A stretch of 64,000 bases of DNA from an uncultured Candidatus Saccharibacteria bacterium (GTDB lineage Bacteria; Patescibacteriota; Minisyncoccia; Phycocordibacterales; PALSA-1337). Positions within the stretch are counted from its first letter, which is position 1; each line of letters begins with the position of its first letter. A program made the position numbers and the translations under genes. This document shows, in pieces, positions 2,088 through 37,668 of this stretch. The DNA lies in NCBI GenBank assembly GCA_964358005.1, contig CAYHNH010000001.1, positions 11,625 to 75,624 of the forward strand, written 5' to 3'. The notes below the pieces were generated by a model, which saw nothing but the letters and a program-made list of their open reading frames with translations, did no database searches and was not told where the DNA came from.

Positions 2088-3125
2088 TTATTCGTTGAGC
2101 TTGGCTCTTATCTTGCCTAATATGTCCTTTCGCACATCCTTATTCTCCTTCAGAAACTGACGAGTGGCATCGTAGCCCCGGCCAATGGATTCGCCATTGT
2201 ACTTATAGGACGCCCCAGAATGCTCGAGGATCCCGTACTTCTCGCCAAGCGCTATCATCTCCCCTTCCTGCGATATGCCCTCGTTATACATGAGATCGAA
2301 TTCGGTCTGCTTGAACGGCGCCGCTACCTTGTTCTTGACGACCTTCACGCGGACGCGGCCGCCCATTATCTCCTCCCCTTTCTTTATCTGCGCGATGCGG
2401 CGTATATCCAGCCTCACTGACGCATAGAATTTGAGAGCCTTGCCCCCCGGCGTCGTCTCTGGATTGCCGAACATGACCCCGATCTGCATGCGTATCTGGT
2501 TGATGAAAATTACGACGGTCTTGGACTTCGCTACTATGCTGGTGAGCTTGCGCAAAGCCTGCGACATGAGACGAGCTTGCGTGCCTACGTGATGGGCACC
2601 CATGTCACCTTCGAGCTCGGCCCGCGGAGTAAGAGCCGCGACGGAATCGATCACGATCACATCCATATTGCCGGTTCTCACAAGACTGTCTACGATCTCC
2701 AGGGCCTGCTCGCCGGTGTCAGGCTGAGAGATGAGCAGGTCTTCGATCTTTACACCCAGCTTCTTCGAATAATCAGGGTCCATGGCATGTTCGGCGTCTA
2801 TGTATGCGCACATGCCGCCCTTTTTCTGAGCTTCTGCTATTACATGGAGAGCCAAGGTCGTCTTTCCGGATGATTCTGGACCGAATATCTCGATGATGCG
2901 GCCGCATGGCAGACCGCCTATTCCGAGAGCAGCATCGAGCCCAAGAGAACCCGTAGGGATGGCCCCGACGTTCACCTTGGTTTTATCGCCAAGCCTCATT
3001 ATGGACTCCTCTCCGAATTTCACTCTGATGGCGTCTATTGCGCTGTTTATATTCGTATCTTTGACATGACCATGAGCTGGCGACGCTTTGACCTCTGCCT
3101 TTTCAACAGTTGATCTTTTCGCCAT
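2088..3125 (-). CDS. recA: recombinase RecA
   Basis: 345 aa; Walker [13 protein letters not shown]; RecA core motifs ([28 protein letters not shown]). Confidence 0.97.
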
Positions 3126-3128
3126 ATC

Positions 3129-3332
3129 TTATCGTGCCACATAAGGCAATAGGCCCATAAAGCGCGCGCGCTTCACTGCGGTAGCAAGCTGTCGCTGGAA
3201 CTTGGCTGAGATCTGAGAACGCTTGCGGCTGATCAAACGTCCGTGCGGATTCAGGAATCTGCGCAGTATCTCGGTATCCTTGTAGTCGATATGCTTGATG
3301 TTGTGCTGGCTAAAATAGCATTGTTTTTTCAT
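3129..3332 (-). CDS. rpsR: 30S ribosomal protein S18
   Basis: 67 aa; characteristic S18 sequence (IDYKDTEILRRFLNPHGRLISRKRS); last gene of rpsF-ssb-rpsR order. Confidence 0.93.
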   Translation of the reverse strand: MKKQCYFSQHNIKHIDYKDTEILRRFLNPHGRLISRKRSQISAKFQRQLATAVKRARFMGLLPYVAR

Positions 3333-3350
3333 AGAATTTGGAATTTAAGA

Positions 3351-3809
3351 TTAGAACGGTATGTCGTCAGGATTGATGTCCTCCTGAGGGTACTCAATAG
3401 CTTCTCCGGGGGCGGCATCCTTGCCATCCTTGGTTCCGCCGTCTGCCTTGCCGGCCGAAGCAGTTCCACCTCCCGTTCCGCCCTTCGAGCCAAACTGAAC
3501 GTTGTCCGCGATAATCTCTGTGCGGTATTTCTTGGTATTAGTCGCGGCATCATCCCATGACCTTGTCTGGATACGTCCCTCGATGAGAGCCTGTGCGCCC
3601 TTCTTCAGGTACTGGGCACAGAGCTCGCCCATTCTGGCGAAGACCACTATGTTGTGGAAGTCAGCCTGCTCTTTCTTGTTACCATCCTTATCCTTGAAAT
3701 AACGATTTGTAGCCAGACTGAAACTCGCGACTTTGGTGCCAGAAGGCAGAGCCTTGAGCTCTGGATCCCGGGTTAGATTGCCTATGATGAATACTTTGTT
3801 TAGATACAT
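3351..3809 (-). CDS. ssb: single-stranded DNA-binding protein
   Basis: OB-fold N-terminus (VFIIGNLTRDPEL...), Gly-rich linker, acidic C-terminal tail ending DDIPF. Confidence 0.93.
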   Translation of the reverse strand: MYLNKVFIIGNLTRDPELKALPSGTKVASFSLATNRYFKDKDGNKKEQADFHNIVVFARMGELCAQYLKKGAQALIEGRIQTRSWDDAATNTKKYRTEIIADNVQFGSKGGTGGGTASAGKADGGTKDGKDAAPGEAIEYPQEDINPDDIPF

Positions 3810-3825
3810 GGTTCTTGCTTATAGA

Positions 3826-4302
3826 TTAAACCTCTTTGACCATTTCGTCTATGCTCTTGTCCATCTCCTCTATGGTGGCTGGCGCAGCAGGCGGCTCCTT
3901 CTTGGCTATAGCCTCCGGCTCGCCCACACCGACAGGCCTTCTCACAAATGAAGCAGCGACCACGGGGGCGCGCTTGCCTAGGTAGGTGTTTTCGCGGCTA
4001 GTGGTGATGACTAGCATCCTCAAGACCGATGGGATGATCTCGATTCCCTTCTTGATTGCTTCGATTTTGGCTGATGCGACCTCAAACTTGACCCAGCCGA
4101 AGTCGGCTTCGTCGTATTTATCATACGAGCCTGACACCATCTTTTTGCGCATGGTGTAAGCAAGCTTCTCATTATGAGGAGCCTCTTCTGCGATAATCAC
4201 GCCTCCATTCTTGGTCACGATCTCCTTCACTGCCGAGACTTCAGCCTCGATGCGCTCTTGCGGCAGGCCAGCGAGCAGGTAACCGATCTCATAGACCGAC
4301 AT
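3826..4302 (-). CDS. rpsF: 30S ribosomal protein S6 with ~60-aa C-terminal extension
   Basis: Start moved to MSVYEIGYLL (S6-like N-terminus) instead of the ORF-track start at 4389; rpsF-ssb-rpsR synteny. Confidence 0.85.
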   Translation of the reverse strand: MSVYEIGYLLAGLPQERIEAEVSAVKEIVTKNGGVIIAEEAPHNEKLAYTMRKKMVSGSYDKYDEADFGWVKFEVASAKIEAIKKGIEIIPSVLRMLVITTSRENTYLGKRAPVVAASFVRRPVGVGEPEAIAKKEPPAAPATIEEMDKSIDEMVKEV

Positions 4303-4647
4303 ACGGTCATCTCGAACTGTTTCGTCCATAGGTTTGCGAGCAAGTGATCCCTTGAATGTTCTCGGGAACCCGTCTGTGCGCCATGGCACACGCGTGGGAC
4401 TTGCTCTAAGTTAAATTATTAATACAGTTCGAGGCTATCACTTTTTACCCCCTTGCGCAAGGGTGTGACCAATCTATCATACCGGTGTTAAAATTTTCTT
4501 CAAAAAAAGTTCAAATTTTAATGAATTAATCTTCAATTTTTAATGAACACGCCACTAGCCCTCATTGACCAGGCCGCCGTAGCATGATATCCATATCACT
4601 TGGAAGATCCCCTTCCAGTTCGTTTCAACCCAACATGGAGAAGAACT

Positions 4648-5130
4648 ATGTGCAAAGGAACAGCATGTTCAGATGCCATTATCGCGGCCGTCAGGTCGCT
4701 GCGCCACACCGACATCACCCTGAAGCCGAATACCGCGAGCGGCAAGCGCCTCCGCTGCATCTTCAAGAAGATGCGGCGCTTCAATGAGAACGACGTTCAC
4801 GCCGCCTTCGAATCTCTCCTGAGGAGCGGCGCCATCGTCATCGTCGCCCACGTCCAGGAAGTCGCCCTGTCAGCCAACGGCGAATCGCGGAGGCAGACGG
4901 GCAAGGCAGCCAGGGCCAACGTCAAGGAGCTCCCCGCCGCACGCCTGTTGGCCAAAAAGAGCTGGTTCCTCGACATCGAGGGGCAGCCGGCCGAGCCAGG
5001 CGAAGTCGAAGGCGTCCGACAATTCTTCGGCATGATGGTGTATGTCACCGCGGACGGACTGCCAGAGAAGATCAAGAAAGTCGTGGCATCTCCGATTACG
5101 CCTGCCCCGAGCCTTCTGGCCGTCGCCTAA
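4648..5130 (+). CDS. hypothetical protein in a GC-rich (~60%) segment
   Basis: Start set at MCKGTACSD, preceded by GGAGAAG RBS; followed by a rho-independent terminator; no recognisable family; GC clearly above flanks. Confidence 0.5.
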   Translation: MCKGTACSDAIIAAVRSLRHTDITLKPNTASGKRLRCIFKKMRRFNENDVHAAFESLLRSGAIVIVAHVQEVALSANGESRRQTGKAARANVKELPAARLLAKKSWFLDIEGQPAEPGEVEGVRQFFGMMVYVTADGLPEKIKKVVASPITPAPSLLAVA

Positions 5131-5156
5131 CGACGCCAATCGCCACGATTCTACCC

Positions 5157-5188
5157 TCGCCCGACTCCCACGTCGGGCGATTTTTATT
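5157..5188 (+). terminator. rho-independent terminator after the 4648-5130 gene
   Basis: TCGCCCGAC-tccca-GTCGGGCGA 9-bp stem followed by TTTTTATT. Confidence 0.6.
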
Positions 5189-5193
5189 CCTAC

Positions 5194-6633
5194 TTATTTC
5201 CTCAAGAAAAGCGGGTTCTTGGGCATCTCGTTAGCCTTGACCAGGTCTTTGATGGCCTTAGAGGTCTCCGGCAGGATCGGATTGAGCATCCACCCGATCG
5301 TATAGAGCCTTACGCACAGATCACGGATAACTTCCTGGGCCGCGGCCTTGTCGGTTTTCACCAATTTAAACGGCTCCTTGGACTGGATAAGCTGATCCGC
5401 CTCAGCCACATGGCGCCAGACCACATTGCAGGCTTTCTGGATATTGAAGCTCTCGATGGCATCTTTAAAGTCTTGAGGGATGGTGTTTTCCGGAATCTTC
5501 ACGGGCCCATCCAGATTATCATGCGCCATCTTCATGATACGGCTGGTCAGATTGCCTATACCATTGGCCAGGCCGGCGTTATAAGCTGCCTTGAAGTATG
5601 GCATCGAGAACGGGCTATCCTCAAAAGAAGACAATTCGCGGGCAACATAATACCTAAGAGCCTCCTTGCCATATTCGCGTATGACTTCGAGGGGATCTAC
5701 TGTGTTGCCAAGCGACTTAGACATCTTCACGCCTCCCTCGCCCGTAATGAAACCGTCTATCACGATCGTGCTAGAACCCGGCAGACCGGCGGCCATGAGC
5801 ATGGCCTGCCACATGGCGGACTGCTGACGTAGGTTATCCTTGCCACAATATTGGACAGTATTCTCGGAAGCGACCCACCATTTTTTGAAGTTATCTTCAT
5901 TGTCTGGCCAACCGGTCGCAGAAATATAGTTAACCAGAGCATCGAACCATACGAACATGACCTGGGATTCATCGCCCGGCACAGGTACACCCCAAGGCAT
6001 CTTCGTGGCCAGACGAGAGATGCTAAAGTCATTTAGGCCTGCCTTGACGAAAGACTTGATCTCATTGAAACGAAAGTCCGGCACAACGAAAGATGGATTC
6101 TTGTCATACATTTCGAGCAGACGGCCCTGAAATGCACTGAACTTAAAGAAATAATTTTCTTCCTTGATGATCTCGATCTCCATGAGCGGATGCGTCGGAC
6201 ATCGGCCATCAACTAATTCCGAATCGGTTTTCTCGAGCTCACAGCCGACACAGTACTTGGCCGAATACTCCTTTTTGTATATGAATCCATTTTTATCGAC
6301 GCGACGCCAAAACTCCTGGGCTGCAGCCACATGATGAGGGTCCGTAGTCCTTACAAAGTTTGATTCCTCCAGAATGCCGACAGCCGAGCCGAGCTCTTTG
6401 AACTTTTTCGAAGCCTGATCGCAGTATTCCTGCACAGGGATGCCGAGATCTTTGGCTTTCCTGAATATCTTGAGACCATGTTCGTCAGTACCAGTGTTAA
6501 AGAAGACCTCGAAACCGGAGAGTTTCTTCCAGCGAGCAACGATGTCCGCGCGTATTAGCTCCATGGCAAAACCGACATGCGGCTCGGCATTGACGTATGG
6601 AAGGGTCGAGGTTATATAAAAAGTCTTGCTCAT
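5194..6633 (-). CDS. metG: methionyl-tRNA synthetase (core only; no C-terminal tRNA-binding domain)
   Basis: 479 aa; class I HIGH region (PYVNAEPHVGF), KMSKS (KMSKSLGN), Zn-knuckle CxxC pairs. Confidence 0.95.
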   Translation of the reverse strand: MSKTFYITSTLPYVNAEPHVGFAMELIRADIVARWKKLSGFEVFFNTGTDEHGLKIFRKAKDLGIPVQEYCDQASKKFKELGSAVGILEESNFVRTTDPHHVAAAQEFWRRVDKNGFIYKKEYSAKYCVGCELEKTDSELVDGRCPTHPLMEIEIIKEENYFFKFSAFQGRLLEMYDKNPSFVVPDFRFNEIKSFVKAGLNDFSISRLATKMPWGVPVPGDESQVMFVWFDALVNYISATGWPDNEDNFKKWWVASENTVQYCGKDNLRQQSAMWQAMLMAAGLPGSSTIVIDGFITGEGGVKMSKSLGNTVDPLEVIREYGKEALRYYVARELSSFEDSPFSMPYFKAAYNAGLANGIGNLTSRIMKMAHDNLDGPVKIPENTIPQDFKDAIESFNIQKACNVVWRHVAEADQLIQSKEPFKLVKTDKAAAQEVIRDLCVRLYTIGWMLNPILPETSKAIKDLVKANEMPKNPLFLRK

Positions 6634-8555: not shown

Positions 8556-9878
8556 CTAAAGCTTCTTCGACAAAAATGACACCAGATCAGCTTCCAACAC
8601 CCTCTCCTGCTTCCCTGTATCACGATCACGAACAGTCACCCCTGCTGACTTTTCAATAGTATCGAAATCTACAGTGATACAGAACGGCGTGCCTATCTCA
8701 TCCTGACGGCGGTAGCGCTTGCCGATGTTGCCGTTGTCATCGAACTCGACTGCGCCAAATTGTTTCTTGAGTGCCAAGTAAATCTCGCGAGCTTTTTCGA
8801 TCAGCGCAGGCTTATTTTTTAGCAACGGAAAGACCGCTACCTTAACGGGCGCCACCTGAGGGCTTAATCTCAGATAAGTCCTCGCCTCACCTCCCATTTG
8901 ATCCTCGGTATAAGCATCGCAAAGCACAGCCAGAAGAGTGCGATCCAGCCCGAATGAAGGCTCGATGCAATGGGGGATGAAACGCTGCTTTGATTCCTCA
9001 TCGTAATATGACAAGTCTGTCCTACTAAATTCGGAATGCTGTTTAAGATCGAAATCCGTGCGATAAGCCAGGCCGTAAAGCTCTTTTCGTCCGAACGGAA
9101 AATCGAATTCAAAGTCTATCGTACGCTTCGAATAATGAGCGCGTTCGCCATCTGGAACCTCAAGTTCGTGGACCTTAGATCCGGTCAAGCCGACTTGGGC
9201 TATGAAGGCCTTCATTTCAAGGCGAAAATGCTCGAAGGCAGGCTTCCATTCTTCCGGCTTAACGAAATATTCTATCTCCATCTGCTCGAACTCGCGCGAA
9301 CGGAAAAGGAAATCGCGCGGAGCGATCTCATTCCTGAAAGCTTTGCCTATCTGACCCATACCGAACGGTAGCTTAGGGTGAAAGGTGTCGATGATGTTCT
9401 TGAAGTTTACGAACATCCCTTGCGCTGTCTCTGGTCGCAGATACGACACAGAAGAGGCATCCTCGAGAGCGCCCACATGCGTCTTGAACATCATGTTGAA
9501 CTGCCTTGAAGCGCCCAGCTTGCCGCCGCAGTCCGGGCACAGGCCAGGGTCTTCTACCTGGTCGGCGCGGAAACGATGCTTGCACTTCGCGCATTCCACG
9601 AGAGGATCAGAAAAACCGGACACATGACCGCTCGCCTCCCACGTGCGCGGATTCATGAGGATTGCGGCGTCGATCCCGTATACGTCTTCTCTGTCTGTGA
9701 TGAACCTGTGCCACCACAACTTCTTGATGTTATGCTTCAACGCCTCGCCATAGGGCCCATAGTCCCACGTGCCAGCAAGTCCACCATATATCTCCGATCC
9801 CTGGAAAATAAAACCGCGCCTCTTGCACAGAGACACGAGAGAATCCATCAGATCCTGATTTTCAGGGCTTTTTTGCAT
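8556..9878 (-). CDS. glyQS: glycyl-tRNA synthetase, dimeric alpha2 type
   Basis: 440 aa; N-terminal GFIFQGSEIYGGLAGTWDYGPYG typical of class II alpha2 GlyRS; C-terminal anticodon-binding domain. Confidence 0.93.
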   Translation of the reverse strand: MQKSPENQDLMDSLVSLCKRRGFIFQGSEIYGGLAGTWDYGPYGEALKHNIKKLWWHRFITDREDVYGIDAAILMNPRTWEASGHVSGFSDPLVECAKCKHRFRADQVEDPGLCPDCGGKLGASRQFNMMFKTHVGALEDASSVSYLRPETAQGMFVNFKNIIDTFHPKLPFGMGQIGKAFRNEIAPRDFLFRSREFEQMEIEYFVKPEEWKPAFEHFRLEMKAFIAQVGLTGSKVHELEVPDGERAHYSKRTIDFEFDFPFGRKELYGLAYRTDFDLKQHSEFSRTDLSYYDEESKQRFIPHCIEPSFGLDRTLLAVLCDAYTEDQMGGEARTYLRLSPQVAPVKVAVFPLLKNKPALIEKAREIYLALKKQFGAVEFDDNGNIGKRYRRQDEIGTPFCITVDFDTIEKSAGVTVRDRDTGKQERVLEADLVSFLSKKL

Positions 9879-9896: not shown

Positions 9897-11840
9897 TCAT
9901 CTCCCGGGCGCCACCACTTCGTCGCCCGACCGGAATATAGGGTCGCTGCTAAAGCTCGTCGTGAGATAGCCCTGGTTGCTCTCCACCTTGGACTTCGTCC
10001 ACATATCCTTGCCTGTGAAATAGGCTTGATTGATCAGGATCGGAGCCGTTCCTATCTGATTTACAGAGGGCTCCAACGACACCTGGAACTGCACCTCTCT
10101 CTTCGTGCCCGTCCCTGAAGTGAACGGTTCGACACTACCGACATGCCAAGTCACTACTCCGGTGTTCTTTTCGAATGAGATATTCTCGCCGCTAGGGCTT
10201 ATCTGCCCCGTCCAGCTCACTTGAGGAGGCAGCGTTGCTGTGACGATGGCCTCAGATATGGCGTTCGATGTGTTGTCCACGCTCCAATTGACTGTGTACG
10301 TCGTCTTCTGCTCGGCTACCGGCGGTATCGGACCGGTGTTAGCGATCGGGCCACTGCGAGTGATGCGTCCCTTAAGCGAGGCTGATGTGACCACTTTAAC
10401 CTTTCTGACTATGGATCCTGTATTCAAAAGCACTTTGTTCGAGCTCGTCCGATCGCCCGAAGCCGAGCCTGATATGGTTATCTCTGGATTTAGGATATGC
10501 GTGTCCGAGCCCTGGCTCTCCGACGGCGTTATCGAGAAGCTCAAGGTGCCGCTTCCGCCAGCGGAGAGAGAGGCAAGCTCCGGATTCGTCCTCTGATCCC
10601 AGACTATGTCATTGGTGGAAGACCTGTAATAGCCGGTCCAGGCCGATACGTTGTTCTTGTCATAGGCCGAGCCAGCCAAGTGAGCAGCTATCTCCACATT
10701 CGAGAGGGTCTCGGGCAGATTGTTGGCCCAGCGGAGATTTACGGTCAAGGAGCGTCCGATATTGCCCACATGATCGCCGATGGAAGAGTCGTTATCTATA
10801 TCTATCGCTATCGAGATGAAAGGTTTTTCGATGGTCAGAACCTGCTCGGTCTCCAGGAATGTAGTACCTATCATCGTCGGGTTCGAAGGACTCCTAGCTC
10901 CTACGTTGAAATGGAAGACCTTGAGATCGCTGTCCTCCCCGGTGAGGGCGCCTTTTATGCTTATCTTGCGCTCGCCACCAGGCGGTATGTCGCCGATCGA
11001 CCATACATTGCCGTCCCCAGTGAGAGGTTGCGGCACAGAGCTCTTGAAGACATAGCCGAACGGATATGTCGCGCGCATGATCACATTCTTGACCGTATTT
11101 GTGGAATTGGATTTGATGCTGACATTCATGTCGAAGGTCTGTCCTGATATGGCCTCCTCAAGCGAGGAGACGGACATGACCACAGGAGACGCGTTCACGA
11201 CCACGTCGTAACTGGATTCCTTGGTAAAGACGGAATTCGAGCCAGCTATGCCATATGTGACATCCGCGATTATCTTCTTCTGGAGGTTCTGCTCGCCGAA
11301 GATCACCGCTTCCACAGTCTTGGTGACAGAGCCGCCAGATGGTATGTCGCCCAGCACTTCCCTGTACACCTCGAGAGACTGTGTGGTATCCGTTGGGTCA
11401 GTGGTGCCTGGAGGGAAACGCACAGCCAGATCAGCTGTCTTCAGGGCTACCGTATTCTTATTCCTGACAGTTATGGCGAAGGAGACAGGCGCTCCGCCCG
11501 GAACTGATACAGGTCCGCTGATATCTATCTCGATGTTATTGCCGGAAATGAAATTGGCGCCATTGAAGAATATGTACGCGCCTATGCCGACCGCGGCGAG
11601 GCAGAAAACGACTGAATATATGAGAAGCTTTGTAAAAAAAGACATGCCGTGATGGCCCTCTGCGGAAGCCGCATCCGAGGTAGATCCATCGATCGGTTCC
11701 TTCTCGTGCTCCCAATCGCGCTGAATATCCGAGGCTTCGTTCGTGATGCGGAACTTCCGGCGCGAGCGTATATCCGGGGCGCTCCGGCTATACAAGGATT
11801 GTTTCAAAGACTCGATGCGGTTCTTCTCTTCGGGCATCAT
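9897..11840 (-). CDS. large membrane-anchored protein with ~4-5 repeated beta-rich extracellular domains
   Basis: 647 aa; ~70-aa cytoplasmic N-terminus, one TM helix (LLIYSVVFCLAAVGIGAYIFF), then repeated ~100-aa units with recurring GDIPxGG motif (DUF11/CARDB-like). Confidence 0.7.
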   Translation of the reverse strand: MMPEEKNRIESLKQSLYSRSAPDIRSRRKFRITNEASDIQRDWEHEKEPIDGSTSDAASAEGHHGMSFFTKLLIYSVVFCLAAVGIGAYIFFNGANFISGNNIEIDISGPVSVPGGAPVSFAITVRNKNTVALKTADLAVRFPPGTTDPTDTTQSLEVYREVLGDIPSGGSVTKTVEAVIFGEQNLQKKIIADVTYGIAGSNSVFTKESSYDVVVNASPVVMSVSSLEEAISGQTFDMNVSIKSNSTNTVKNVIMRATYPFGYVFKSSVPQPLTGDGNVWSIGDIPPGGERKISIKGALTGEDSDLKVFHFNVGARSPSNPTMIGTTFLETEQVLTIEKPFISIAIDIDNDSSIGDHVGNIGRSLTVNLRWANNLPETLSNVEIAAHLAGSAYDKNNVSAWTGYYRSSTNDIVWDQRTNPELASLSAGGSGTLSFSITPSESQGSDTHILNPEITISGSASGDRTSSNKVLLNTGSIVRKVKVVTSASLKGRITRSGPIANTGPIPPVAEQKTTYTVNWSVDNTSNAISEAIVTATLPPQVSWTGQISPSGENISFEKNTGVVTWHVGSVEPFTSGTGTKREVQFQVSLEPSVNQIGTAPILINQAYFTGKDMWTKSKVESNQGYLTTSFSSDPIFRSGDEVVAPGR

Positions 11841-11849: not shown

Positions 11850-12443
11850 CTACAAATGGCTCTCCTTTAAGGCCTTATTGATGTGCTGATTGAGGGCGGC
11901 CCTTTTGACTGCGGCTTGCCCGAGGATTTCCCGAGTGAACTGACCGCGGCCAGCAAATTCGGCCAACGACGAATCGTCACCGATGTATCCCAGAAGGTCC
12001 AGCATCCTGAACACAGATAGCGACTCAAGAGCTCTCATTTCCTCGGCTGACAGGGCTGCGTTGCCCTTCAAAAATGCCGCCAGACTCTCAACAAGGTCGA
12101 ACAGCTCTGGGTGGGGTTCCTCTCCTTGCAACAATCTCCTCAAAAGCAAACTGACCCTGGCCAATATCTCTAAAGAGTCCTTCCCCTCTGCTACTAGCGG
12201 GCCATCTTGTGCGCTGGTCAGCCTCCATAGCTCTTTCCCCCGTACAAGCGAGAATATGCCCAAGGAATAATCCTGCGCAAAGTAGCGCAATTTTGATTTT
12301 TCCAGACGGATACCTTGAGCGACTGCCGATACAAGACCGAAATCCCTGGTGAATATGGATATCATCTTGCCCGCCTCTCCATATGGGCGCGAGTCTATGA
12401 TGAAACCGGGTGTAGTGTGTATGGCGTGCATGCCCCATATCAT
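11850..12443 (-). CDS. recO: DNA repair protein RecO
   Basis: N-terminal OB-fold pattern (GFIIDSRPYGEAGKMISIFTRDFGLVSAVAQGIRLEKSKL), ~195 aa. Confidence 0.85.
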   Translation of the reverse strand: MIWGMHAIHTTPGFIIDSRPYGEAGKMISIFTRDFGLVSAVAQGIRLEKSKLRYFAQDYSLGIFSLVRGKELWRLTSAQDGPLVAEGKDSLEILARVSLLLRRLLQGEEPHPELFDLVESLAAFLKGNAALSAEEMRALESLSVFRMLDLLGYIGDDSSLAEFAGRGQFTREILGQAAVKRAALNQHINKALKESHL

Positions 12444-12522: not shown

Positions 12523-15500
12523 TCACGAAAGACCCTTGAGACCGAGTGTGTCGCCCCATTCAATCGCCGAAAGATTGGTCGTAGCTTTTATTTTATCCTC
12601 GTTTTTTTCAATCAAAGCTTTGAGGTCATGGGTCGCTACGAGTACAGCCCTGTCGCCTACCGACAAACCCTTCTCTTTGCGCATATCCTGTATCTTGCGC
12701 AGAAGCTCGCGCAGTTCGCCTTCTTCCTTGAGCTCGGGCGTGAGATTTAGATCGAGAACGGCTTCCTTTTCCTGAGATGCAGCCAAGACAACACTTTTTA
12801 CATTCACTTCATCCTTGATCAGCTCAACCATGTCATGACTCAAGTTGCTGAACTTCGCATCCCTGACCGACAATGAAGCAAGCGGCTGCCTGACATTTAT
12901 CTTGGCCGACATGCGGGCCTCCAGACCTAATGAACAGAATTGTCTGACCAACTCCATATCACTTAATATTTTCTCGTTGACAACACCTGCAACAGGCCAG
13001 CTCTCTAGATGGACACTCTCTAGATGTCCCGCCATTTTTTTGTACAGATCCTCAGCGAAGAACGGTGTAAACGGAGCCATGAGCTTTGCCAAAGTTGTCA
13101 GGACTTCGACCGATGTCAGCAAAGCAAACTGTTTGTCCAAACCCTCGGTTTTGAGACGTTCCCTTGAACGCCTTACATACCACTGTGACAAATCAGCAAC
13201 ATAATCCCGGATTGCTCTAGTTGGTTCAAGCAAAACATATCTATCCAGAGACTCGGTGATCGTATGTACCAATTCATTTGTACGACTCATAATCCACAGA
13301 TCAAGCACATTTTTAGTTTTTTCCTCTGTGAAGCACTCCGTCTTTCCTGAATTCATTTCGTAAAATGAGTAAATATTAGAGACAAGATTGAAGACCTTCT
13401 TCACGATCTCATCCACAGTCTTCTCGTCGAAGTTCTTCGACTCGCCGGCTTCGTTCACCGAATACATCCAGAATCGAAGGGCGTCAGCGCCATACTTATC
13501 CATCATAGCCCACGGATCAATCACGTTGCCGATCGACTTGGACATCTTTTTACCTTCCGCATCACGCATATGTCCGAGGCAGACAACATTCCTAAAGGCC
13601 TTGCCCTTGCCCAAGAGCGCACCTATGGCATGGAGCGTATAGAACCAGCCGCGAGTCTGGTCAATGGCCTCCGATATGAAGTCAGCCGGATATGCCAGTT
13701 TCCTGCCACCAAAAAACTTCTTCGGGAAGGCGAAGGGGTAATGATCCTGAGCGAAAGGCATGGCCCCCGAATCGAACCAGACGTCCATGACCTCCTTAAC
13801 ACGCGACATCTCACCCCCGCAGGAGCAGGCTAGTTTCACCTCGTCTATGAACGGCCGATGCAGATCAAGCTCATACTCGGAGTTGTGTGGCAGGATACTA
13901 AGGTCTAGCTTGCGAGCCTCGGCTTTATGTATGTAGTTGCTAGCTTCGTAGTCGTTAGTCTGTCTGCGGTCGAGTCCTTGCGCGACTGCCATGAGCATCA
14001 TCGAAGGAGAGCCGTGCGATACTATCAATATCTTCTTGCCCTCATATCTCTTTTCCAGGTCGTACAAGAAATCTCCGACGCGCTTTTTCACCTCCACATA
14101 AGTTTCCACGCCATCAGCGTTCGGCTCAAAACGATTGCTGGCCTCTCCCTGCGGGAAGACTTTCAGGAATGAATCCAGATCCTTACCGCTCCAACTGCCG
14201 AATCCTAGCTCGCGCAGGCGGTCATCGAAGGCGACATCTGCTTCCTCCAAACCTATCGTCTTCCGAACGATCTCTGTTGTCTCTCTGGTGCGAACGAACG
14301 GCGAAGACACTATCATGTCGAAACCGACGCTCTTGAGAGACGTAGCTGTCTCGAGAGCGTGAGCCTTGCCCTTTTCAGTCAGATGGAATGGGGCGACAGG
14401 ATCGCTCGTGACTATTTTACCCACGTTATTCCCGGCTTCCCCATGTCGCATTATGTAGTATGTGTTTTTCGGCTTTGCCGAAACATCGGCCACTGATCCT
14501 ACGGTCTTCCGCTCGCCACATTTGTCGCACACCCAGACCGGCAGCGGCGTGCCCCAATAGCGCTCGCGTGAGATCGCCCAGTCCTTGACCTCGCGGAGCC
14601 ATTCGCCAAAACGGCCCTCTTTTATGTGAGCCGGCTCCCAGTTGATGCTCTCATTCTCCCTGACAAGCTCCTTACGTAGGCTCGACATCCTGATGTACCA
14701 GCTGTCGCGCGCAAAATATATGAGCGGCGTCTTACAGCGCCAGCAGAATGGATATGTATGTTCGTATTTCTCCTTGTGAAAAAGCAGCCCGCGACCAGCG
14801 AGATCCTTTATAATCGCCACGTCCGTCGCTTCATCTTTGACAAAAGCTCCAGCTAGGAATCCCGCCTCTTTCTTGAAGGTCCCATCATCATTGACCAGAT
14901 GATATTTCGGCAGTCCTACCTTCGTGCCTAGCTCAAAGTCATCCTGGCCGTACATGACCGCGGTATGCACTATGCCCGTACCGTCGGTCGTCGTGACGAA
15001 GTCAGCCGCATAGACTTTGTAGGCATTCTTAAGCTTCTCCTTTTCAGTACCTGATATGTTGTCGCGCAGGAATGGGTAAAGCGGCTCGTATTGTAATCCG
15101 ACGAGATCGCTACCTTTGAGGTCTCCGTGAACGATTTCTACAGTGTGGCCTTTCAGAACTGTATCCATCCTGGATTTCGCCATGATCAACAATTCTGGAA
15201 TACCATCGATTCGGACAGCGCAATATTCAACGTTCTCTCCAATTGCCAATCCGACGTTTCCAGGTAGCGTCCAAGGAGTCGTCGTCCAGGCCAAGATGTA
15301 GGCTGAGTCACGAGTCACGTAATCTTTTCCGAATTTTTGGCCGGCCTTCAGATGAAACTTCACTGTCACCGCCAGATCCTTCACGTCCGCATAGCCCTGC
15401 GCGAGCTCGTGCGACGACAAACCTGTGCCACAGCGCGGACACCAGGGCACGACTTTGTAGTCCTTATACAAAAGGCCCTTGTCATCGACGGTCTTCACTA

Positions 15501-15975
15501 TATTCCAAAGCGACTCTATGTATTCCGGCTTATAGGTAATGTAGGGATCCTTGAGGTCCACCCAATATCCAATGCGCTTAGTGAAATCCTCCCACTCGCG
15601 CACGTAAGTCCAGACGCTCTCCTTACATTTCTCATTGAAAGCCGCGATGCCATAGCTCTCGATGTCTTTTTTTGACTTAAAGCCGAGCTGTTTTTCTACT
15701 TGGAGCTCGACTGGCAGACCGTGAGTATCCCAGCCGCCTTTCCTACGGACATTGAAACCGCGCATGGTCTTGTAGCGTGGGATGGCATCCTTGAAAGCTC
15801 GGGCCTCGAGATGATGTATGCCCGGTCGGCCGTTGGCCGTCGGCGGGCCCTCATAAAAAACGAATTCTTTTTTTGAATCCTTATTCTTCTCCAGGGATTT
15901 CTCGAAAATTCCTTTGTCATTCCAGAATTTCAGAATCCGCTCTTCCCTGAGCGCGTGTTGGCTCTTTTCTGCCAT
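12523..15975 (-). CDS. ileS: isoleucyl-tRNA synthetase (type 2) with an embedded histidine-phosphatase (PGAM-family) domain
   Basis: 1150 aa; HIGH-type PGIHH, GWDTHGLPVE, CP1 editing TTTPWTLPGN, KMSKSIGN. Residues ~505-690 carry PGAM signatures IMRHGEAGNN, SSPFVRTRETT, LIVSHGSP between the CxxC knuckle (VWVCDKCGE) and DLHRPFIDEV. Confidence 0.93.
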   Translation of the reverse strand: MAEKSQHALREERILKFWNDKGIFEKSLEKNKDSKKEFVFYEGPPTANGRPGIHHLEARAFKDAIPRYKTMRGFNVRRKGGWDTHGLPVELQVEKQLGFKSKKDIESYGIAAFNEKCKESVWTYVREWEDFTKRIGYWVDLKDPYITYKPEYIESLWNIVKTVDDKGLLYKDYKVVPWCPRCGTGLSSHELAQGYADVKDLAVTVKFHLKAGQKFGKDYVTRDSAYILAWTTTPWTLPGNVGLAIGENVEYCAVRIDGIPELLIMAKSRMDTVLKGHTVEIVHGDLKGSDLVGLQYEPLYPFLRDNISGTEKEKLKNAYKVYAADFVTTTDGTGIVHTAVMYGQDDFELGTKVGLPKYHLVNDDGTFKKEAGFLAGAFVKDEATDVAIIKDLAGRGLLFHKEKYEHTYPFCWRCKTPLIYFARDSWYIRMSSLRKELVRENESINWEPAHIKEGRFGEWLREVKDWAISRERYWGTPLPVWVCDKCGERKTVGSVADVSAKPKNTYYIMRHGEAGNNVGKIVTSDPVAPFHLTEKGKAHALETATSLKSVGFDMIVSSPFVRTRETTEIVRKTIGLEEADVAFDDRLRELGFGSWSGKDLDSFLKVFPQGEASNRFEPNADGVETYVEVKKRVGDFLYDLEKRYEGKKILIVSHGSPSMMLMAVAQGLDRRQTNDYEASNYIHKAEARKLDLSILPHNSEYELDLHRPFIDEVKLACSCGGEMSRVKEVMDVWFDSGAMPFAQDHYPFAFPKKFFGGRKLAYPADFISEAIDQTRGWFYTLHAIGALLGKGKAFRNVVCLGHMRDAEGKKMSKSIGNVIDPWAMMDKYGADALRFWMYSVNEAGESKNFDEKTVDEIVKKVFNLVSNIYSFYEMNSGKTECFTEEKTKNVLDLWIMSRTNELVHTITESLDRYVLLEPTRAIRDYVADLSQWYVRRSRERLKTEGLDKQFALLTSVEVLTTLAKLMAPFTPFFAEDLYKKMAGHLESVHLESWPVAGVVNEKILSDMELVRQFCSLGLEARMSAKINVRQPLASLSVRDAKFSNLSHDMVELIKDEVNVKSVVLAASQEKEAVLDLNLTPELKEEGELRELLRKIQDMRKEKGLSVGDRAVLVATHDLKALIEKNEDKIKATTNLSAIEWGDTLGLKGLS

Positions 15976-15996: not shown

Positions 15997-17712
15997 TTAC
16001 ATCCTTTGAGGCACTTTTATGCCGAGGAGCCAAAGGCCTTCGCTCATCGTCTTATAGAAGGCACGAGTCAGCGCGATCCTATACGGAGTCATGGGATCTT
16101 TCTCATCGACGATCTGCGTACCCGCATAAAAACCATTGAAGGCGCCAGCTAGATTTATGAGGTACCCTGCCACCTGTTGCGGCGAGAATTCCTGGGCGGC
16201 GCGGGCGGCAATATCCGGGAATCTGACGAGCAGACGCTCGAGCAAGCCGACTTCCTGAGGCCTCATGGGCGAACCGGACACGGTCGATATGCCTTTTGCC
16301 TTCTCGAGCACAGAATTAGCCCTAACAGTAGAGTACTGTAGATACGGTCCCGAATCGCCTTCGAACGAGATAGAGGCTACCGAGTCAAATATGATGTCAC
16401 TGCCGACAGACGACCGCAAAACCGTGTACTTGATGGCCGCAACAGCGATGATCTCCGCTATCTCTCCCGCTTCTGCCTCGGGATAGTCGCGCTCCTTCAT
16501 CTTCTCGAGCACCATGTCTTTGAGCTCACTGATCAAAGCATCCGCCGTTATGACATTACCCTTCCTCGATGACATCTTGCCGGAAGCGAATCGCATGACA
16601 CCGTGACCCTTGTAAAGCAGCTTCGGGCCATTCTTGGGATCCATCTCGGTCATGACCTTTGCCAGGACCCTGAAATAGTCCTTCTGTTCGTTGGCCGTCA
16701 CAATGATAGACAGATCAGTGTCTGGGTGATGCTCAAACTTGGTCATATTTAAACCGATCTCTTTTGCCTCATAGGTAGGCAAGCCTTTTGAGTTTATAAA
16801 GACTCGAGTGTGGAGGCCATGATCCTCGCCTTTGAACACGACGGCTCCCTCGCTTTCCACGAATACCTTCCCAATGTTCGCCTTTACCAGCTTGAGACCG
16901 ATCGGCGCCATATCGCTTTCATATATAGACTCATCGAAAGATGTCCCGAGCACCTTATAGAGCATGTCGAAGTGCTCGAGGCTCCAGCGTCTACCGGTCT
17001 CTGCAATGCGGACGACTTCCGGATCCGTTTTTTCGTATATAACCTGGTTCAAGGCGTCGATCTCCGACTTTGCCTTGGGATCTTCTTCGTATGTGTTCGT
17101 GCCCTCGACATACATCTTGCCCAGAAAAGCTGTCTTCTCCAGGACGGAGGCGCTTTCGAGAGGCATCTCACTTAGATGTTTCCTGACAGCCCAGACAGAC
17201 TTGGCAATGTGGAGGCCGACATCTGATGGGTAGCACATGCGGACGACTTTTGATCCCGTAAATTCAATCAGACGCGAGAATGATTCCCCGATCGCGTTCG
17301 ACATAATGTGGCCGATATGAAAAACTTTGAAAGTGTTCGGGTCGGTGTACTCGACGATGACCTTCCTCGGCGCTGTCGCCGAGCTTTCCTTCAGAGAACC
17401 GGCCTCCGATATCTGGACGACGCTCTTTGCTATCGCCGCAGACTTTATCTTGAAGTTGATAAAGCCATCACCGGCGATCTCGACGCTTTCCATCCATTCC
17501 GGCCCTGAATCCTTCAAAAATGCGATGATTTTCTCTGCCAAAGACTTCGGCGGCACCTTGAGCTGTTTCGCATATGCCAATGCGGCACTAGTCGAAAAAT
17601 CCCCACGCTCCGGGTTTTCGGGATATTCGAGCGAGATTTTGGCTCCTTTCACTCCCTGGGTCTCCAGAGCGGAAATGATCAGCCGAGTTAAGTCCCCTTT
17701 CATGAAAACCAT
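15997..17712 (-). CDS. argS: arginyl-tRNA synthetase
   Basis: 571 aa; HIGH (FHIGHIMSNAIGESF), degenerate KMSK (KMSSRKGN), C-terminal DALR anticodon-binding domain. Confidence 0.93.
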   Translation of the reverse strand: MVFMKGDLTRLIISALETQGVKGAKISLEYPENPERGDFSTSAALAYAKQLKVPPKSLAEKIIAFLKDSGPEWMESVEIAGDGFINFKIKSAAIAKSVVQISEAGSLKESSATAPRKVIVEYTDPNTFKVFHIGHIMSNAIGESFSRLIEFTGSKVVRMCYPSDVGLHIAKSVWAVRKHLSEMPLESASVLEKTAFLGKMYVEGTNTYEEDPKAKSEIDALNQVIYEKTDPEVVRIAETGRRWSLEHFDMLYKVLGTSFDESIYESDMAPIGLKLVKANIGKVFVESEGAVVFKGEDHGLHTRVFINSKGLPTYEAKEIGLNMTKFEHHPDTDLSIIVTANEQKDYFRVLAKVMTEMDPKNGPKLLYKGHGVMRFASGKMSSRKGNVITADALISELKDMVLEKMKERDYPEAEAGEIAEIIAVAAIKYTVLRSSVGSDIIFDSVASISFEGDSGPYLQYSTVRANSVLEKAKGISTVSGSPMRPQEVGLLERLLVRFPDIAARAAQEFSPQQVAGYLINLAGAFNGFYAGTQIVDEKDPMTPYRIALTRAFYKTMSEGLWLLGIKVPQRM

Positions 17713-32694: not shown

Positions 32695-34152
32695 TTACTC
32701 GACAGCGATCTTGGTCGAAGGCCTCAGAGCGAACAGCTTCTTGATGTCGCCGTGGAAAAGGCTCTCACGGAAACTGCCAAAGCCGCTGCTGTCCGAGGAT
32801 TTGTCGGCCAACGACGCGAGAAAGGCGAGCTTGATGGGTGGACCCCATTTGCGAGTGCCGAGCCGCGCGGTGACACTGCAATTGTCGACCATGTAGGCGA
32901 CACCCCGGGCATTCATGAATGGTGTCAGGGAATCGACTGCTTCAATGAGCGACTCGTTCACGATCTCGGTGATCGCATGCCCCTTGGAGCGGAGGACGTC
33001 CATGAGCGCCAGCACCATGCCGGCATACATGCCCGCGGCCAGGGCCAAGTCATCCGACATCGGCACATCAGCACGGTAAAGCTCGCCGCCGAGTTTCCAC
33101 ATGCCCGATGTTTCGATCGAGGGCAGCGCCGCCGCAAGGTTTCGATTCGCCTGGATCACGTCGCGGATCTCATCGCCTGACGAAACGGATTCGTAGATGT
33201 CGAGCGCGAGCTGCCGCGCGGGCAGATAGGCCTTGTTGTAACCGACCTCGAAAATCTGGCGCTCCGAAGGGGTCAAGGATTCGTAGAGCCCTTCCAAGCC
33301 GTTCTTCGAGATGAGCTCGGTCACGGTGCTGGTAAGCCCACGAGCCGACAGGAGGAATGCTTCTTCCTTCGACCTGCCGAGCGAACGGAAATACTCGTAG
33401 AGGGCCTCAGAGAGCGCCCAGATGCCGGCGAGGAGGACATGCCGTTCTCCAGTGAGGTCCGACTTCCATTCGTTCTCGCCGGTGGTGAAGAACGTGACCG
33501 GCGAACCGATCGCGATAGACCAGCCGAGGGCGTAGTCGAGCGCGCAGCCAGTGAGATCCTTCACGACAGCAACGCTGGAATTGATCCCGGCTCCTTCAGT
33601 GTCACGCGACTGATTGTAGAGCCGACGGAGCGAAGGGCCCATGCCTTTCGGCGCGACCAGGATGACGTTGATGTCATCGCGGAGAGAGGCCTGGATCGAA
33701 TCCAAATAGCCGAAGAGGAAACCGTGGGATACGCAGAGCGTCGCTCCCGGCTTCATCATTCCCGTGATCTCCTGCCAGCGCTCGGTTTGAGCATTGTCGT
33801 TGATGAGGAGAACGACCATGTCGGCCGTCGGGATAATCTCAGCGAATGTGCCCAGGGTGCCCTCTTCCTGCCGAAAGCCGGCAAGCCGGGCGACCTGGAA
33901 CTTTTCCGAGTCGTCACGAAGGGCGACGCGCACCATGGCCTTGCTGCCCGCTTCAAGGAGCGAGTCGCGGCCATTTTGCGCCTGAGCCGGAGCCTGTGAA
34001 CCCCAACCGACGACAGCGATCTCGTTCACGCCTTCGAAAGCTGCTGACAAGAGCGGGAATACCTTCCTTCCCCCTCTGAGAAACTGCTCGGGTCCGCTGC
34101 TCAATTGCAGCGTCTCCAAGCCGAATACTGACGATGTGTGTGTTGTTTGCAT
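32695..34152 (-). CDS. ilvC: ketol-acid reductoisomerase, class II (long form)
   Basis: 485 aa; aligns along its length with E. coli-type IlvC (IAVVGWGSQAPAQAQNGRDS, LCVSHGF, VILVAPKGMGPSLR, VKSDLTGERHVLLAG); GC ~62%, above the window average. Confidence 0.9.
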   Translation of the reverse strand: MQTTHTSSVFGLETLQLSSGPEQFLRGGRKVFPLLSAAFEGVNEIAVVGWGSQAPAQAQNGRDSLLEAGSKAMVRVALRDDSEKFQVARLAGFRQEEGTLGTFAEIIPTADMVVLLINDNAQTERWQEITGMMKPGATLCVSHGFLFGYLDSIQASLRDDINVILVAPKGMGPSLRRLYNQSRDTEGAGINSSVAVVKDLTGCALDYALGWSIAIGSPVTFFTTGENEWKSDLTGERHVLLAGIWALSEALYEYFRSLGRSKEEAFLLSARGLTSTVTELISKNGLEGLYESLTPSERQIFEVGYNKAYLPARQLALDIYESVSSGDEIRDVIQANRNLAAALPSIETSGMWKLGGELYRADVPMSDDLALAAGMYAGMVLALMDVLRSKGHAITEIVNESLIEAVDSLTPFMNARGVAYMVDNCSVTARLGTRKWGPPIKLAFLASLADKSSDSSGFGSFRESLFHGDIKKLFALRPSTKIAVE

Positions 34153-35305: not shown

Positions 35306-35381
35306 TGGGGTGCCTAATGGGATTTGAACCCATGCTGCGGCTTTCACAGAGCCGAGTGCTAACCGTTACACCATAGGCACC
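35306..35381 (-). tRNA. tRNA-His (anticodon GTG), encoded G-1 and CCA
   Basis: Cloverleaf: acceptor GTGCCTA/TAGGCAC, anticodon arm CGGCT-CTGTGAA-AGCCG, T-arm ATGGG-TTCAAAT-CCCAT, extra 5-prime G pairing with C73, 3-prime CCA encoded. Confidence 0.9.
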
Positions 35382-35411
35382 ATATAACCGCTAAAATTCT
35401 ATTTTTTGGAG

Positions 35412-35969
35412 CTAAGAATAGGTCGGCGGTTTCTCCTTTATACCAGATTTATGGTTACTTAGTCGAGCAAGCGCGTACAGCAAAGACGAAAGCCTGTTCA
35501 AAAAAGCCAGCGTAGCGGGGCCAACCTTGATCTCGCCAGTCTCGGTTCCGCCTACCACCCGCCGCTCCAGCTTGCGCGCCAGAGTACGGGAGACGTCGAA
35601 AAGCGCCGCCAGCTCCGTACCGCCAGAGATGAAGAAGGTCTTTATGGGCGGCATCTCTTTTTCCATCGCATCGATCCAGGTCTCCATGAGCGTAACCTTC
35701 TCCTGCCCCACACGCTTGTCTGCCCCCGCGAGCTCTGCCTGCACCGAAAAGAGAGAATCCTGGATCCACCAGACGATGTCGGCGGGAGCCTTCCCTTCAA
35801 CAGACCATGCGACAGAGGCCGCTTTGATCTTCGCCAAACCAAGAAAAGAGTTCAGCTCATCCGATGCGCCGAGCGACTCCGTCTGGCAGGAGCTCTTGGA
35901 TTTCCTCTCGCCCGGACCAGACTTGAAGTCCTTGGTCGTTCCGGCATCGCCTTTTCGCGTGTATAGCAT
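35412..35969 (-). CDS. PduO-type ATP:cob(I)alamin adenosyltransferase family protein
   Basis: Start set at MLYTRKGDAGTT (family N-terminus); the longer ORF-track start would overlap the tRNA-Arg gene. Confidence 0.8.
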   Translation of the reverse strand: MLYTRKGDAGTTKDFKSGPGERKSKSSCQTESLGASDELNSFLGLAKIKAASVAWSVEGKAPADIVWWIQDSLFSVQAELAGADKRVGQEKVTLMETWIDAMEKEMPPIKTFFISGGTELAALFDVSRTLARKLERRVVGGTETGEIKVGPATLAFLNRLSSLLYALARLSNHKSGIKEKPPTYS

Positions 35970-35989
35970 AGGCTGATTATAGACTATTG

Positions 35990-36061
35990 TGCTCCCACCA
36001 GGAATCGAACCTGGACCGCAGGCTTCGGAGGCTTGCGTTCTATCCATTAAACTATGGGAGC
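35990..36061 (-). tRNA. tRNA-Arg (anticodon CCG)
   Basis: Acceptor GCTCCCA/TGGGAGC, anticodon loop CTCCGAA, T-arm CCAGG-TTCGATT-CCTGG; one A-C mismatch in anticodon stem; CCA not encoded. Confidence 0.85.
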
Positions 36062-37634: not shown

Positions 37635-37668
37635 AGTGGAGCTAACTTATCATATATCCCCCAAAGAT

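Follow-up and report, generated by a model that had tools for sequence, protein, structure and literature searches.

Few enzymes are as conserved as the aminoacyl-tRNA synthetases. In type-2 isoleucyl-tRNA synthetases (IleRS2) such as those of Priestia megaterium (8C8U, 8C8V, and 8C8W) and Thermus thermophilus (1ILE), a Rossmann core, a CP1 editing domain, an anticodon-binding domain, and a DUF5915-type C terminus follow one another in a fixed order. Synthetases with extra domains are well known; for example, NCBIfam has a model (NF040702) for isoleucyl-tRNA synthetase (IleRS) joined to an N-acetyltransferase of the GNAT type. The histidine phosphatases of the His_Phos_1 superfamily (PF00300) are well known too, and the bifunctional RNase H/acid phosphatase (PRK07238) is a precedent for the fusion of a His_Phos_1 domain to a nucleic-acid enzyme. 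Here we describe an ileS gene in which the two families meet. It lies in 64 kb of DNA (the window) from an uncultured Candidatus Saccharibacteria bacterium of the Candidate Phyla Radiation (CPR) (assembly GCA_964358005.1, contig CAYHNH010000001.1, positions 11,625 to 75,624), and it encodes a type-2 IleRS with a complete, apparently active phosphatase nested within its catalytic domain.

The domain order of this IleRS is that of the enzymes from P. megaterium and T. thermophilus. Unlike the P. megaterium enzyme (PmIleRS2), it has about 200 extra residues, which fold independently as a phosphatase and separate one half of the second Cys4 knuckle from the other. The extra enzymatic domain is His_Phos_1 and not GNAT, and NF040702 gives a partial match only (304 bits versus a cut-off of 1,999). 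The match to PRK07238 is also partial (73–76 bits versus 326). The closest described relatives of the extra domain itself are PhoE/YhfR, a phosphatase of broad specificity from Geobacillus stearothermophilus, and iPSP1, a novel-type phosphoserine phosphatase from Hydrogenobacter thermophilus (4IJ5/4IJ6), which have the same fold, a similar length (about 190–210 amino acids), and the same set of catalytic residues (R-H-G, R, E, and H). These two are the best structural matches (TM-score of 0.77, root-mean-square deviation of 2.4–2.5 Å). They are free enzymes, however, whereas the CPR domain is nested in another enzyme, and it is only 23–27% identical to them.

To our knowledge, catalytically intact foreign enzyme domains within the catalytic core of a synthetase are very unusual. 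The initial annotation of this DNA, which was made from the sequence alone, knew of no synthetase with a phosphatase of the phosphoglycerate mutase (PGAM) type, and in full-text literature searches we did not find any description of a synthetase with a nested His_Phos_1 domain. The recent papers on the evolution and structure of IleRS that we consulted, among them PMC10485003, mention neither a phosphatase nor CPR enzymes. That the arrangement might turn out to be a common and already-described feature of IleRS was half right: it is widespread in a clade of the CPR, but we found no description of it.

A phosphatase nested in the catalytic domain of IleRS

Below, residue numbers refer to the IleS protein and coordinates are positions in the window. 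The bounds and strand of the ileS open reading frame (ORF; Table 1) are as they had been annotated. It encodes 1,150 amino acids and matches the NCBIfam ileS model TIGR00392 with 873.8 bits, above the cut-off of 621.4, in two stretches that lie on either side of the insert. The Pfam match to tRNA-synt_1 is also split in two, with His_Phos_1 between the parts, and Anticodon_1 and DUF5915 are matched as well. The initial annotation had placed the phosphatase domain at 13908–14463, which corresponds to residues 505–689, and this is where PF00300 matches. In the whole protein, the match has E = 6.9e-32 and 111.1 bits and covers positions 2–173 of the 194 in the profile; for the excised segment it has E = 1.7e-33 and 116.4 bits. 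(The gathering threshold is 21.7 bits.) The motifs that had been quoted for the phosphatase (IMRHGEAGNN, SSPFVRTRETT, and LIVSHGSP) and for the flanking IleRS (PVWVCDKCGE and DLHRPFIDEV) are all present and in frame. The window contains no other His_Phos_1 gene, as judged by a six-frame search, and no second IleRS-like ORF.

To place the insertion, we aligned the protein to PmIleRS2 (8c8u/8c8w). Residue 497 aligns to residue 473 of the solved chain and residue 697 to residue 480, so about 200 residues replace a linker of about 6 residues, and the expectation that an ordinary IleRS has only a short linker at this site is borne out. The insert begins after C483/C486 and ends before C717/C719, upstream of the DVWFDSG strand. 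In other words, it is the tip of the catalytic domain’s second Cys4 hairpin that holds the phosphatase. The segment may be the one that structural work on IleRS and ValRS labels CP3. The earlier description of the site as just before KMSKS was too loose, as the KMSKS loop (residues 810–814) is 114 residues downstream of the end of the insert (residue ~696).

Structure prediction also indicates a separate domain, as the initial annotation had anticipated. An AlphaFold2 (AF2) model of the full-length protein has a mean predicted local distance difference test score (pLDDT) of 89.8 and a predicted TM-score of 0.81, and the blocks that make up the insert have pLDDT of 93–98. When the insert was modeled alone, it reached 94.2, which is a confident and independent fold. 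The best structural match of the full model, from Foldseek, is PmIleRS2 (8c8v, E = 1.6e-83, TM-score normalized by the target of 0.77).

Could the insert be an assembly chimera, a frameshifted neighbor, or a selfish element that resembles an intein? There is a conserved “PHN” at the C-terminal junction that is superficially like the end of an intein, and the module has a patchy distribution in valyl-tRNA synthetase (ValRS; see below). On the other hand, the composition profile has no break across ileS, there are no flanking repeats of note (the 13-nucleotide repeats nearby look like chance matches), and the identical architecture is present in hundreds of independent assemblies, which excludes an assembly join. 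So this is an in-frame fusion of domains, as first annotated, and we rejected an artefact of assembly or frameshift. We also rejected an intein. The residue after H697-N698 is variable (it is serine in only 24%), there is no cysteine or serine at the N-terminal junction, H697 aligns with an ordinary residue of PmIleRS2, and scanning the protein against Pfam revealed neither an intein nor a homing-endonuclease family. We give artefacts and selfish elements next to no weight.

The active site is conserved, and the domain resembles metabolite phosphatases

We compared the protein to its 120 closest relatives in the databases, which are 59–100% identical to it and have 1,115–1,239 amino acids. Within the insert, R510, H511, G512, N517, R562, E589, E624, R632, and H654 are invariant in all 120, even though the inserts as a whole are only 38–53% identical. 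In a broader set of 275 domains, which includes copies from ValRS, tandem copies, and standalone proteins, RH[GA] is present in 273 and R-H in all 275. Given this conservation of the full catalytic set, the nested domain is apparently an active phosphatase.

By sequence, the solved structures closest to the domain are PhoE/YhfR (1EBB/1H2E, E = 3e-13) and iPSP1 (4IJ5, E = 1.6e-11). Comparing the AF2 model of the insert to solved folds gave iPSP1, PhoE, the mycobacterial glucosyl-3-phosphoglycerate phosphatase GpgP, TIGAR, and CobC, all with TM-scores around 0.77 (4IJ6, 1H2E, 4PZ9, 3DCY, and 6E4B match at 0.73–0.78). True mutases ranked below the phosphatases. So the initial assignment to the PGAM family holds as to the superfamily fold and the catalytic residues, all of which are present, but the domain resembles a phosphatase of the PhoE/iPSP type rather than a true mutase.

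We considered whether the domain could be a glycolytic dPGM and rejected this. Besides the ranking of folds, the excised segment falls below the curated cut-offs (23 bits versus 81.7 for TIGR01258; 85 versus 225 for dPGM_arch, NF038349). Also, a separate cofactor-independent phosphoglycerate mutase (iPGM) is encoded beside a ValRS that carries the module (see below). The segment also falls short of the models for CobC (TIGR03162, 77 bits versus 162.9), PspA (NF045917, 60.7 versus 350), GpmB (NF002901, 56.1 versus 261), phosphoserine phosphatase 1 (NF009994, 51.1 versus 277), and SixA (TIGR00249, 38.7 versus 74.5). Because all of these cut-offs were missed, specificity cannot be transferred from any of these families, and we place the domain in the superfamily only. 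Finally, the insert is near neutral: the median isoelectric point of 105 inserts from IleRS is 6.4, which gives no hint of general RNA binding.

The nested phosphatase is standard in a large clade of the CPR

PF00300 is present in all 120 of the closest relatives, which come from NCBI, JGI, ENA, and Logan assemblies and have names such as Candidatus Taylorbacteria, Paceibacterota, Parcubacteria, and Patescibacteria. Comparing the insert to that of relatives, as the initial annotation had proposed, thus finds the same domain at the same site. Next, we scanned one genome per GTDB species with a profile of the insert, and at least 456 stretches encode a relative of the domain. In the best 80 of these loci, the domain always lies inside one long ORF of about 1,100–1,290 amino acids, unless the end of the contig or a run of N cuts it. 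The names in these 80 include Taylor-, Nomura-, Campbell-, and Vogelbacteria, Paceibacteria, and Minisyncoccia. (In one locus, L062, ileS seems to be split at the boundary of the insert, near 3990–4000, but the cause is 10 consecutive N in the record and not biology.) When we searched 1.84 billion cluster representatives exhaustively, using only the insert as the query, we obtained 11,992 relatives; among the best 150, the longer proteins are mostly IleRS, whole or cut by contig ends, with the domain at the same site. Because this architecture is found with IleRS flanks that are down to 35–45% identical, it must be old. The nested phosphatase is the standard design of IleRS in a large clade of the CPR (Paceibacteria/Parcubacteria).

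Some IleRS have more than one copy. There may be two or three tandem His_Phos_1 domains at the main site, and in two representatives (P0177 and P0184), a second copy lies between the catalytic and anticodon-binding domains. Across IleRS and ValRS, the representatives with two to four copies include P0122, P0148, P0151, P0168, P0177, P0184, and P0201, and the RHG motif is kept in those copies of P0122 that we inspected by eye. There are also standalone tandems of two domains (P0183, P0207, and P0218).

Sequences with the fused architecture have been public since about 2015–16, with automatic annotations but uncharacterized. In NCBI’s pipeline, the fused proteins are named “class I tRNA ligase family protein” and the relatives that lack the insert are named “isoleucine--tRNA ligase,” so the insert appears to break the automatic naming of IleRS.

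The same module is found in ValRS

ValRS accounts for two of the best 150 representatives, and all of the multi-domain hosts that could be identified among these 150 are either IleRS or ValRS. For example, P0278 (GCA_964396295.1) is a full-length ValRS of 1,140 amino acids with the insert (locus L081, 3001–6423). Its gene adjoins the iPGM gene that we mentioned above, so that genome, at least, does not need the insert for glycolysis. The same kind of module has entered the catalytic domain of a sister class Ia enzyme. In contrast to the IleRS clade of the window, which is uniformly fused, its presence in ValRS is patchy and involves a second site. Of 122 ValRS that we examined, mostly the closest relatives of P0278 (P0279–P0397, Magasanikbacteria-like), 34 have His_Phos_1. 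The ValRS without inserts typically have 860–1,000 amino acids, and their core sequence around the insertion sites is near-identical to that of the carriers, which implies recent gain or loss.

The module is found at two sites in these ValRS. Site A is inside the CxxC...CxxC hairpin, between PVWY and DTWFSSG, and is the counterpart of the site in IleRS. Site B, which is commoner, is directly after STLGWP. One fragment of ValRS has four copies of the domain, three of them in tandem. Overall, the module has entered at least four different sites in IleRS and ValRS, and in both enzymes, the part of the Rossmann fold that contains it is the second half. One such ValRS was labeled by JGI’s pipeline as “valyl-tRNA synthetase/broad specificity phosphatase PhoE.”

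With these copies in hand, we can ask if the domain might be a pseudo-enzyme, that is, a module that aids folding, contacts tRNA, or recruits a partner without catalysis. In class Ia synthetases, large insertions in this region are often involved in the handling of tRNA, and tandem copies could act as spacers. But pseudo-enzymes normally lose their catalytic residues, while these are invariant among domains that are otherwise just 31–53% identical, including the standalone, tandem, and ValRS copies. We consider a non-catalytic role to be highly improbable.

Another idea is that the module is a built-in protein phosphatase that reverses an inhibitory phosphorylation of the synthetase, for example on a serine of the KMSKS loop. 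HipA/HipT-type toxin kinases phosphorylate other class I synthetases, and the His_Phos_1 superfamily does include protein phosphatases (PGAM5, STS-1, and SixA). Both hosts belong to class I and have a conserved KMSKS, the module is in the second Rossmann half of each, and a patchy, accessory distribution would fit an arms race. On the other hand, we have no evidence of a cognate kinase, the score against the SixA model is about half of its cut-off, and structurally, the domain is closest to metabolite phosphatases that have a cap subdomain. Also, the standalone form of the module, which we describe next, is a protein of normal size for a soluble enzyme. So this role seems very unlikely.

Fused here, a separate gene in sister lineages

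Some CPR bacteria encode the phosphatase as a protein of its own. These standalone proteins have 183–204 amino acids and are 31–40% identical to the insert, and they are colinear with it from the K-N-x-Y-[YF]-x-x-RHG near the start to the AE-x-R-x-L at the end, so the insert corresponds to a whole gene product. From the search of cluster representatives, we looked up seven standalone genes. Five of them (P0154, P0164, P0170, P0173, and P0209) are directly downstream of argS, and another is on a contig that is too short to have a neighborhood. Overall, argS is upstream of a standalone phosphatase in loci L083–L088, L091, and L093.

In L084/L085 and L086–L088, the next gene after the phosphatase is an ileS that lacks the insert and encodes 931–961 amino acids, and recO and a gene for a DUF11/CLIPPER protein come next. 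(We saw recO and the DUF11 gene after ileS in L084, L086, L088, and L093.) We reached L093, from Candidatus Portnoybacteria, by starting with an IleRS that lacks the insert, and its gene order is argS, a hypothetical protein of 183 amino acids, ileS, recO, CLIPPER, and a class II synthetase. The ORFs of the phosphatase and ileS abut in L084 (5570/5572) and overlap in L093 (3519/3501). The order in the window, which is argS, ileS, recO, DUF11, and a class II synthetase, is the same block, except that here the phosphatase does not precede ileS but is nested in it. Similarly, among the best 80 fused loci, argS is directly upstream of ileS in 49 of 60 and recO is downstream in 66 of 70. The standalone phosphatases in this block (P0154 in L084, P0170 in L086, and the 183-residue protein in L093) have the same catalytic residues as the insert, but unlike in the window, they are separate polypeptides, and the accompanying IleRS have 909–993 amino acids and no insert.

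The arrangement varies in L091, where the phosphatase follows argS and the adjacent ileS runs toward it on the opposite strand. In that locus, the ileS that lacks the insert (2682–5609, minus strand) was called as two genes, of 554 and 412 amino acids; the gene may be genuinely split, or the break may come from a frameshift or from an error in sequencing.

The state without the insert is stable as well. None of the 120 best relatives of the IleRS from L084 (61–100% identity) has PF00300; their names include Portnoy-, Kuenen-, and Pacebacteria. The nested phosphatase and the neighboring gene in sister lineages of the CPR are a fused/separate (Rosetta-stone) pair, and the association of the phosphatase with ileS is frequent but not obligatory.

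How often did the module move between these states? In a neighbor-joining distance tree of the IleRS core, with few taxa, rooted on ValRS, and with 200 resamplings, the two lineages with separate genes were never monophyletic (0 of 200), and each of them clustered with one of the fused representatives (84% for one lineage, 74% for the other). This suggests that there was more than one transition between fused and separate, whether by fusion or by fission. A tree of the domains themselves, with both inserts and standalone proteins, was star-like and poorly resolved, and its “solo” class included gene fragments, so we used it only qualitatively.

All of the fusions that we saw are internal. If a stop codon between the abutting ORFs were lost, then we would expect the phosphatase to be at the N terminus of IleRS, and we did not see any such fusions. 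This suggests that the position of the module within the structure matters.

These neighborhoods bear on a third possibility, that the module heals the ends of tRNAs. It would remove a 2′-, 3′-, or other terminal phosphate at the acceptor end, or from nucleotides that are released there, so that the tRNA could be recharged. The hosts and the neighbors (IleRS, ValRS, and ArgRS) are all class I synthetases that handle tRNA, and the active site is of a kind that suits terminal phosphomonoesters. However, the domain is not basic, its nearest structural relatives act on small metabolites, and we found no similarity to known RNA-end phosphatases. Tandem arrays and varying sites of insertion also give little reason to expect a fixed geometry relative to A76. 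We view end-healing as quite unlikely, though somewhat less so than dephosphorylation of the synthetase.

What might the phosphatase do?

We think it likely that the protein is bifunctional, that is, a housekeeping type-2 IleRS with a nested and active accessory phosphomonoesterase that is tied to class Ia synthetases. The predicted activity comes from the conserved catalytic set. We propose the tie to class Ia synthetases because all of the hosts that we identified are IleRS or ValRS, and because the module entered at least four sites, is adjacent to synthetase genes in operons, and is not joined end to end in any fusion that we saw. Under this proposal, the phosphatase would be neither a glycolytic mutase nor an unrelated passenger. 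Being in the same polypeptide or in a tightly packed gene cluster would ensure that it is co-expressed and co-located with the synthetase. For the substrate, we would guess first at a phosphorylated small molecule, either a metabolite or a nucleotide, that arises in aminoacylation or hinders it. Alternatively, it might act on a phosphorylated end of tRNA or on a phosphorylated loop of the synthetase. We would rank the candidate roles in that order (metabolite or nucleotide, then tRNA end, then the synthetase itself), but our confidence in each one is low. The initial annotation had listed a mis-activated intermediate, a nucleotide alarmone, and a 3′-phosphate on tRNA as possible targets.

A bolder version of the proposal is that the CPR have a phosphatase that is dedicated to servicing class Ia synthetases, either from inside IleRS or ValRS or from between argS and ileS, and that components of the translation machinery are its direct targets. 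For instance, it might clear a phosphorylated tRNA end or a phosphorylated inhibitor at the active site, or it might reverse the phosphorylation of the synthetase by a toxin kinase. We hold this only tentatively and would sooner bet against it.

The main competitor is that the phosphatase is an unrelated passenger: a general metabolic enzyme (such as a phosphatase for phosphoserine or sugar phosphates, or one of broad specificity) that rides in a permissive surface loop in the product of a highly expressed and essential gene, where the only benefit is co-expression or compaction of the genome, without a biochemical connection to aminoacylation. In its favor, the closest structures (iPSP1, PhoE, and GpgP) are phosphatases for small metabolites, the domain’s near-neutral charge is not like that of an RNA binder, the module is patchy among near-identical ValRS, and one standalone homolog (P0215) is in an unrelated context. 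Against it, the identified hosts among the best 150 representatives are all IleRS or ValRS, and the module has entered these two enzymes at four or more different sites. In several lineages, moreover, the standalone gene adjoins ileS or comes right after argS. The absence of N-terminal fusions, which read-through would give, also implies that placement matters. We consider a passenger unlikely, although it is a little less doubtful than any of the other alternatives.

Several observations weigh against our proposal that the phosphatase is tied to the synthetases. First, the domain missed the curated cut-off for every characterized equivalog that we tested. Second, our survey of hosts is biased because the query was derived from IleRS. 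Third, among very closely related ValRS the module is present in some and absent from others, so it is dispensable there, which is compatible with a passenger role. Fourth, the neighborhood of P0215 is unrelated, and for two further ileS loci that lack the insert, there is no phosphatase nearby. More broadly, adjacency and fusion indicate a link but are no proof of a shared biochemical step. The fold, with its similarity to metabolite phosphatases, and the neutral charge keep the passenger alive as an explanation, if an unlikely one.

The IleRS host and its neighborhood

The IleRS part of the protein looks fully functional, as predicted from its motifs, its fold, and its housekeeping context (the genes nearby include argS, glyA, recO, another synthetase, and metG). 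The class I signatures (GIHH at residues 52–55 and KMSKS at 810–814) are conserved in 119 homologs, and both Cys4 knuckles are conserved as well. WTTTPWT, which we take to be the mark of the CP1 editing site, is conserved too, and this fits with the prediction that the editing site is intact.

The GXHH form of the HIGH signature is nearly invariant in the fused clade, and the best sequence match in PDB is the GVHH mutant of PmIleRS2 (8c8w, E = 2.5e-247). G/AXHH is a natural and catalytically competent variant of IleRS2 that is responsible for hyper-resistance to mupirocin (Brkic et al., PMC10485003); in natural IleRS2, it raises the Ki for mupirocin by up to about 1000-fold (PMC10485003). The near-invariance of GXHH suggests by analogy that the IleRS of the fused clade would be intrinsically hyper-resistant to mupirocin. 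The models for mupirocin-resistance IleRS score below their cut-offs (795 and 782 bits for MupA/MupB, NF000257/NF000258, versus 1,900 for each).

We noticed some other features of the window. Four synthetase genes lie within 13 kb on one strand: a metG-like gene (5194–6633, minus strand, 479 amino acids) and the class II synthetase, ileS, and argS that are listed in Table 1. They are interleaved with genes for an M16 peptidase, a protein with a metallo-beta-lactamase fold, the DUF11 protein, and recO. The window also encodes a ketol-acid reductoisomerase (32695–34152, minus strand, 485 amino acids, with KARI_N and two stretches of KARI_C), which is an enzyme of isoleucine and valine biosynthesis. 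CPR organisms are usually without amino acid biosynthesis, so this gene was unexpected. There are eight tRNA genes over 19 kb (35306–54411), for His, Arg (three), Leu, Val, Ser, and Lys, and there is no tRNA-Ile gene in the window.

Table 1. Positions of ileS, of the nested phosphatase and its key residues, and of neighboring genes in the window
Feature	Position	Strand	Basis or remarks
ileS, type-2 isoleucyl-tRNA synthetase with nested phosphatase	12523..15975	-	ORF of 1150 aa; TIGR00392, Pfam, AF2 and Foldseek
Inserted module, aa 498-696, complete His_Phos_1 domain with short linkers	13888..14484	-	Alignment to 8c8u/8c8w
Match to Pfam His_Phos_1 (PF00300), aa 507-680	13936..14457	-	Pfam scan
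R510-H511-G512, RHG motif with the nucleophilic His	14440..14448	-	Invariant in 120 homologs
R562, second phosphate-binding Arg (SSPFVRTRET box)	14290..14292	-	Invariant
E589, putative proton donor (LRELGFG)	14209..14211	-	Invariant; aligns with LRE-x-x-x-G of PhoE (1EBB)
H654, second catalytic His (IVSHG)	14014..14016	-	Invariant
C483-x-x-C486, first half of the Cys4 knuckle that flanks the insert	14518..14529	-	Each Cys 99% conserved in homologs
C717-x-C719, second half of the Cys4 knuckle	13819..13827	-	Each Cys 99% conserved in homologs
G52-I-H-H55, non-canonical GXHH form of the class I HIGH signature	15811..15822	-	Sequence
KMSKS loop, aa 810-814	13534..13548	-	K810, M811, and K813 invariant; S812 and S814 at least 90% conserved
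WTTTPWT, CP1 region of the IleRS core, aa 230-236	15268..15288	-	Invariant in 119 sequences
argS, directly upstream of ileS	15997..17712	-	Pfam tRNA-synt_1d, DALR_1, Arg_tRNA_synt_N
recO, directly downstream of ileS	11850..12443	-	Pfam RecO_N
Large DUF11/CLIPPER-type protein, syntenic marker	9897..11840	-	Pfam DUF11
Class II aminoacyl-tRNA synthetase with HGTP anticodon domain	8556..9878	-	Beyond the DUF11 gene

Implications

A practical consequence is that genomes with the fused IleRS may be scored as missing IleRS in metabolic reconstructions, and that the embedded domain may be counted as a phosphoglycerate mutase.

For the biology of the CPR, the nesting is fixed across a large clade, has recurred independently in ValRS, and alternates with a standalone gene that is linked to ileS in an operon. 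The evidence from fused and separate forms points to a functional partnership that had not previously been examined. If the phosphatase acts on tRNA, on a by-product or inhibitor of aminoacylation, or on the synthetase, then it would be a new accessory step of translation in minimal genomes. And if there is indeed a phosphatase dedicated to the class Ia synthetases, then it would be a previously unrecognized layer of maintenance or defense for aminoacylation.

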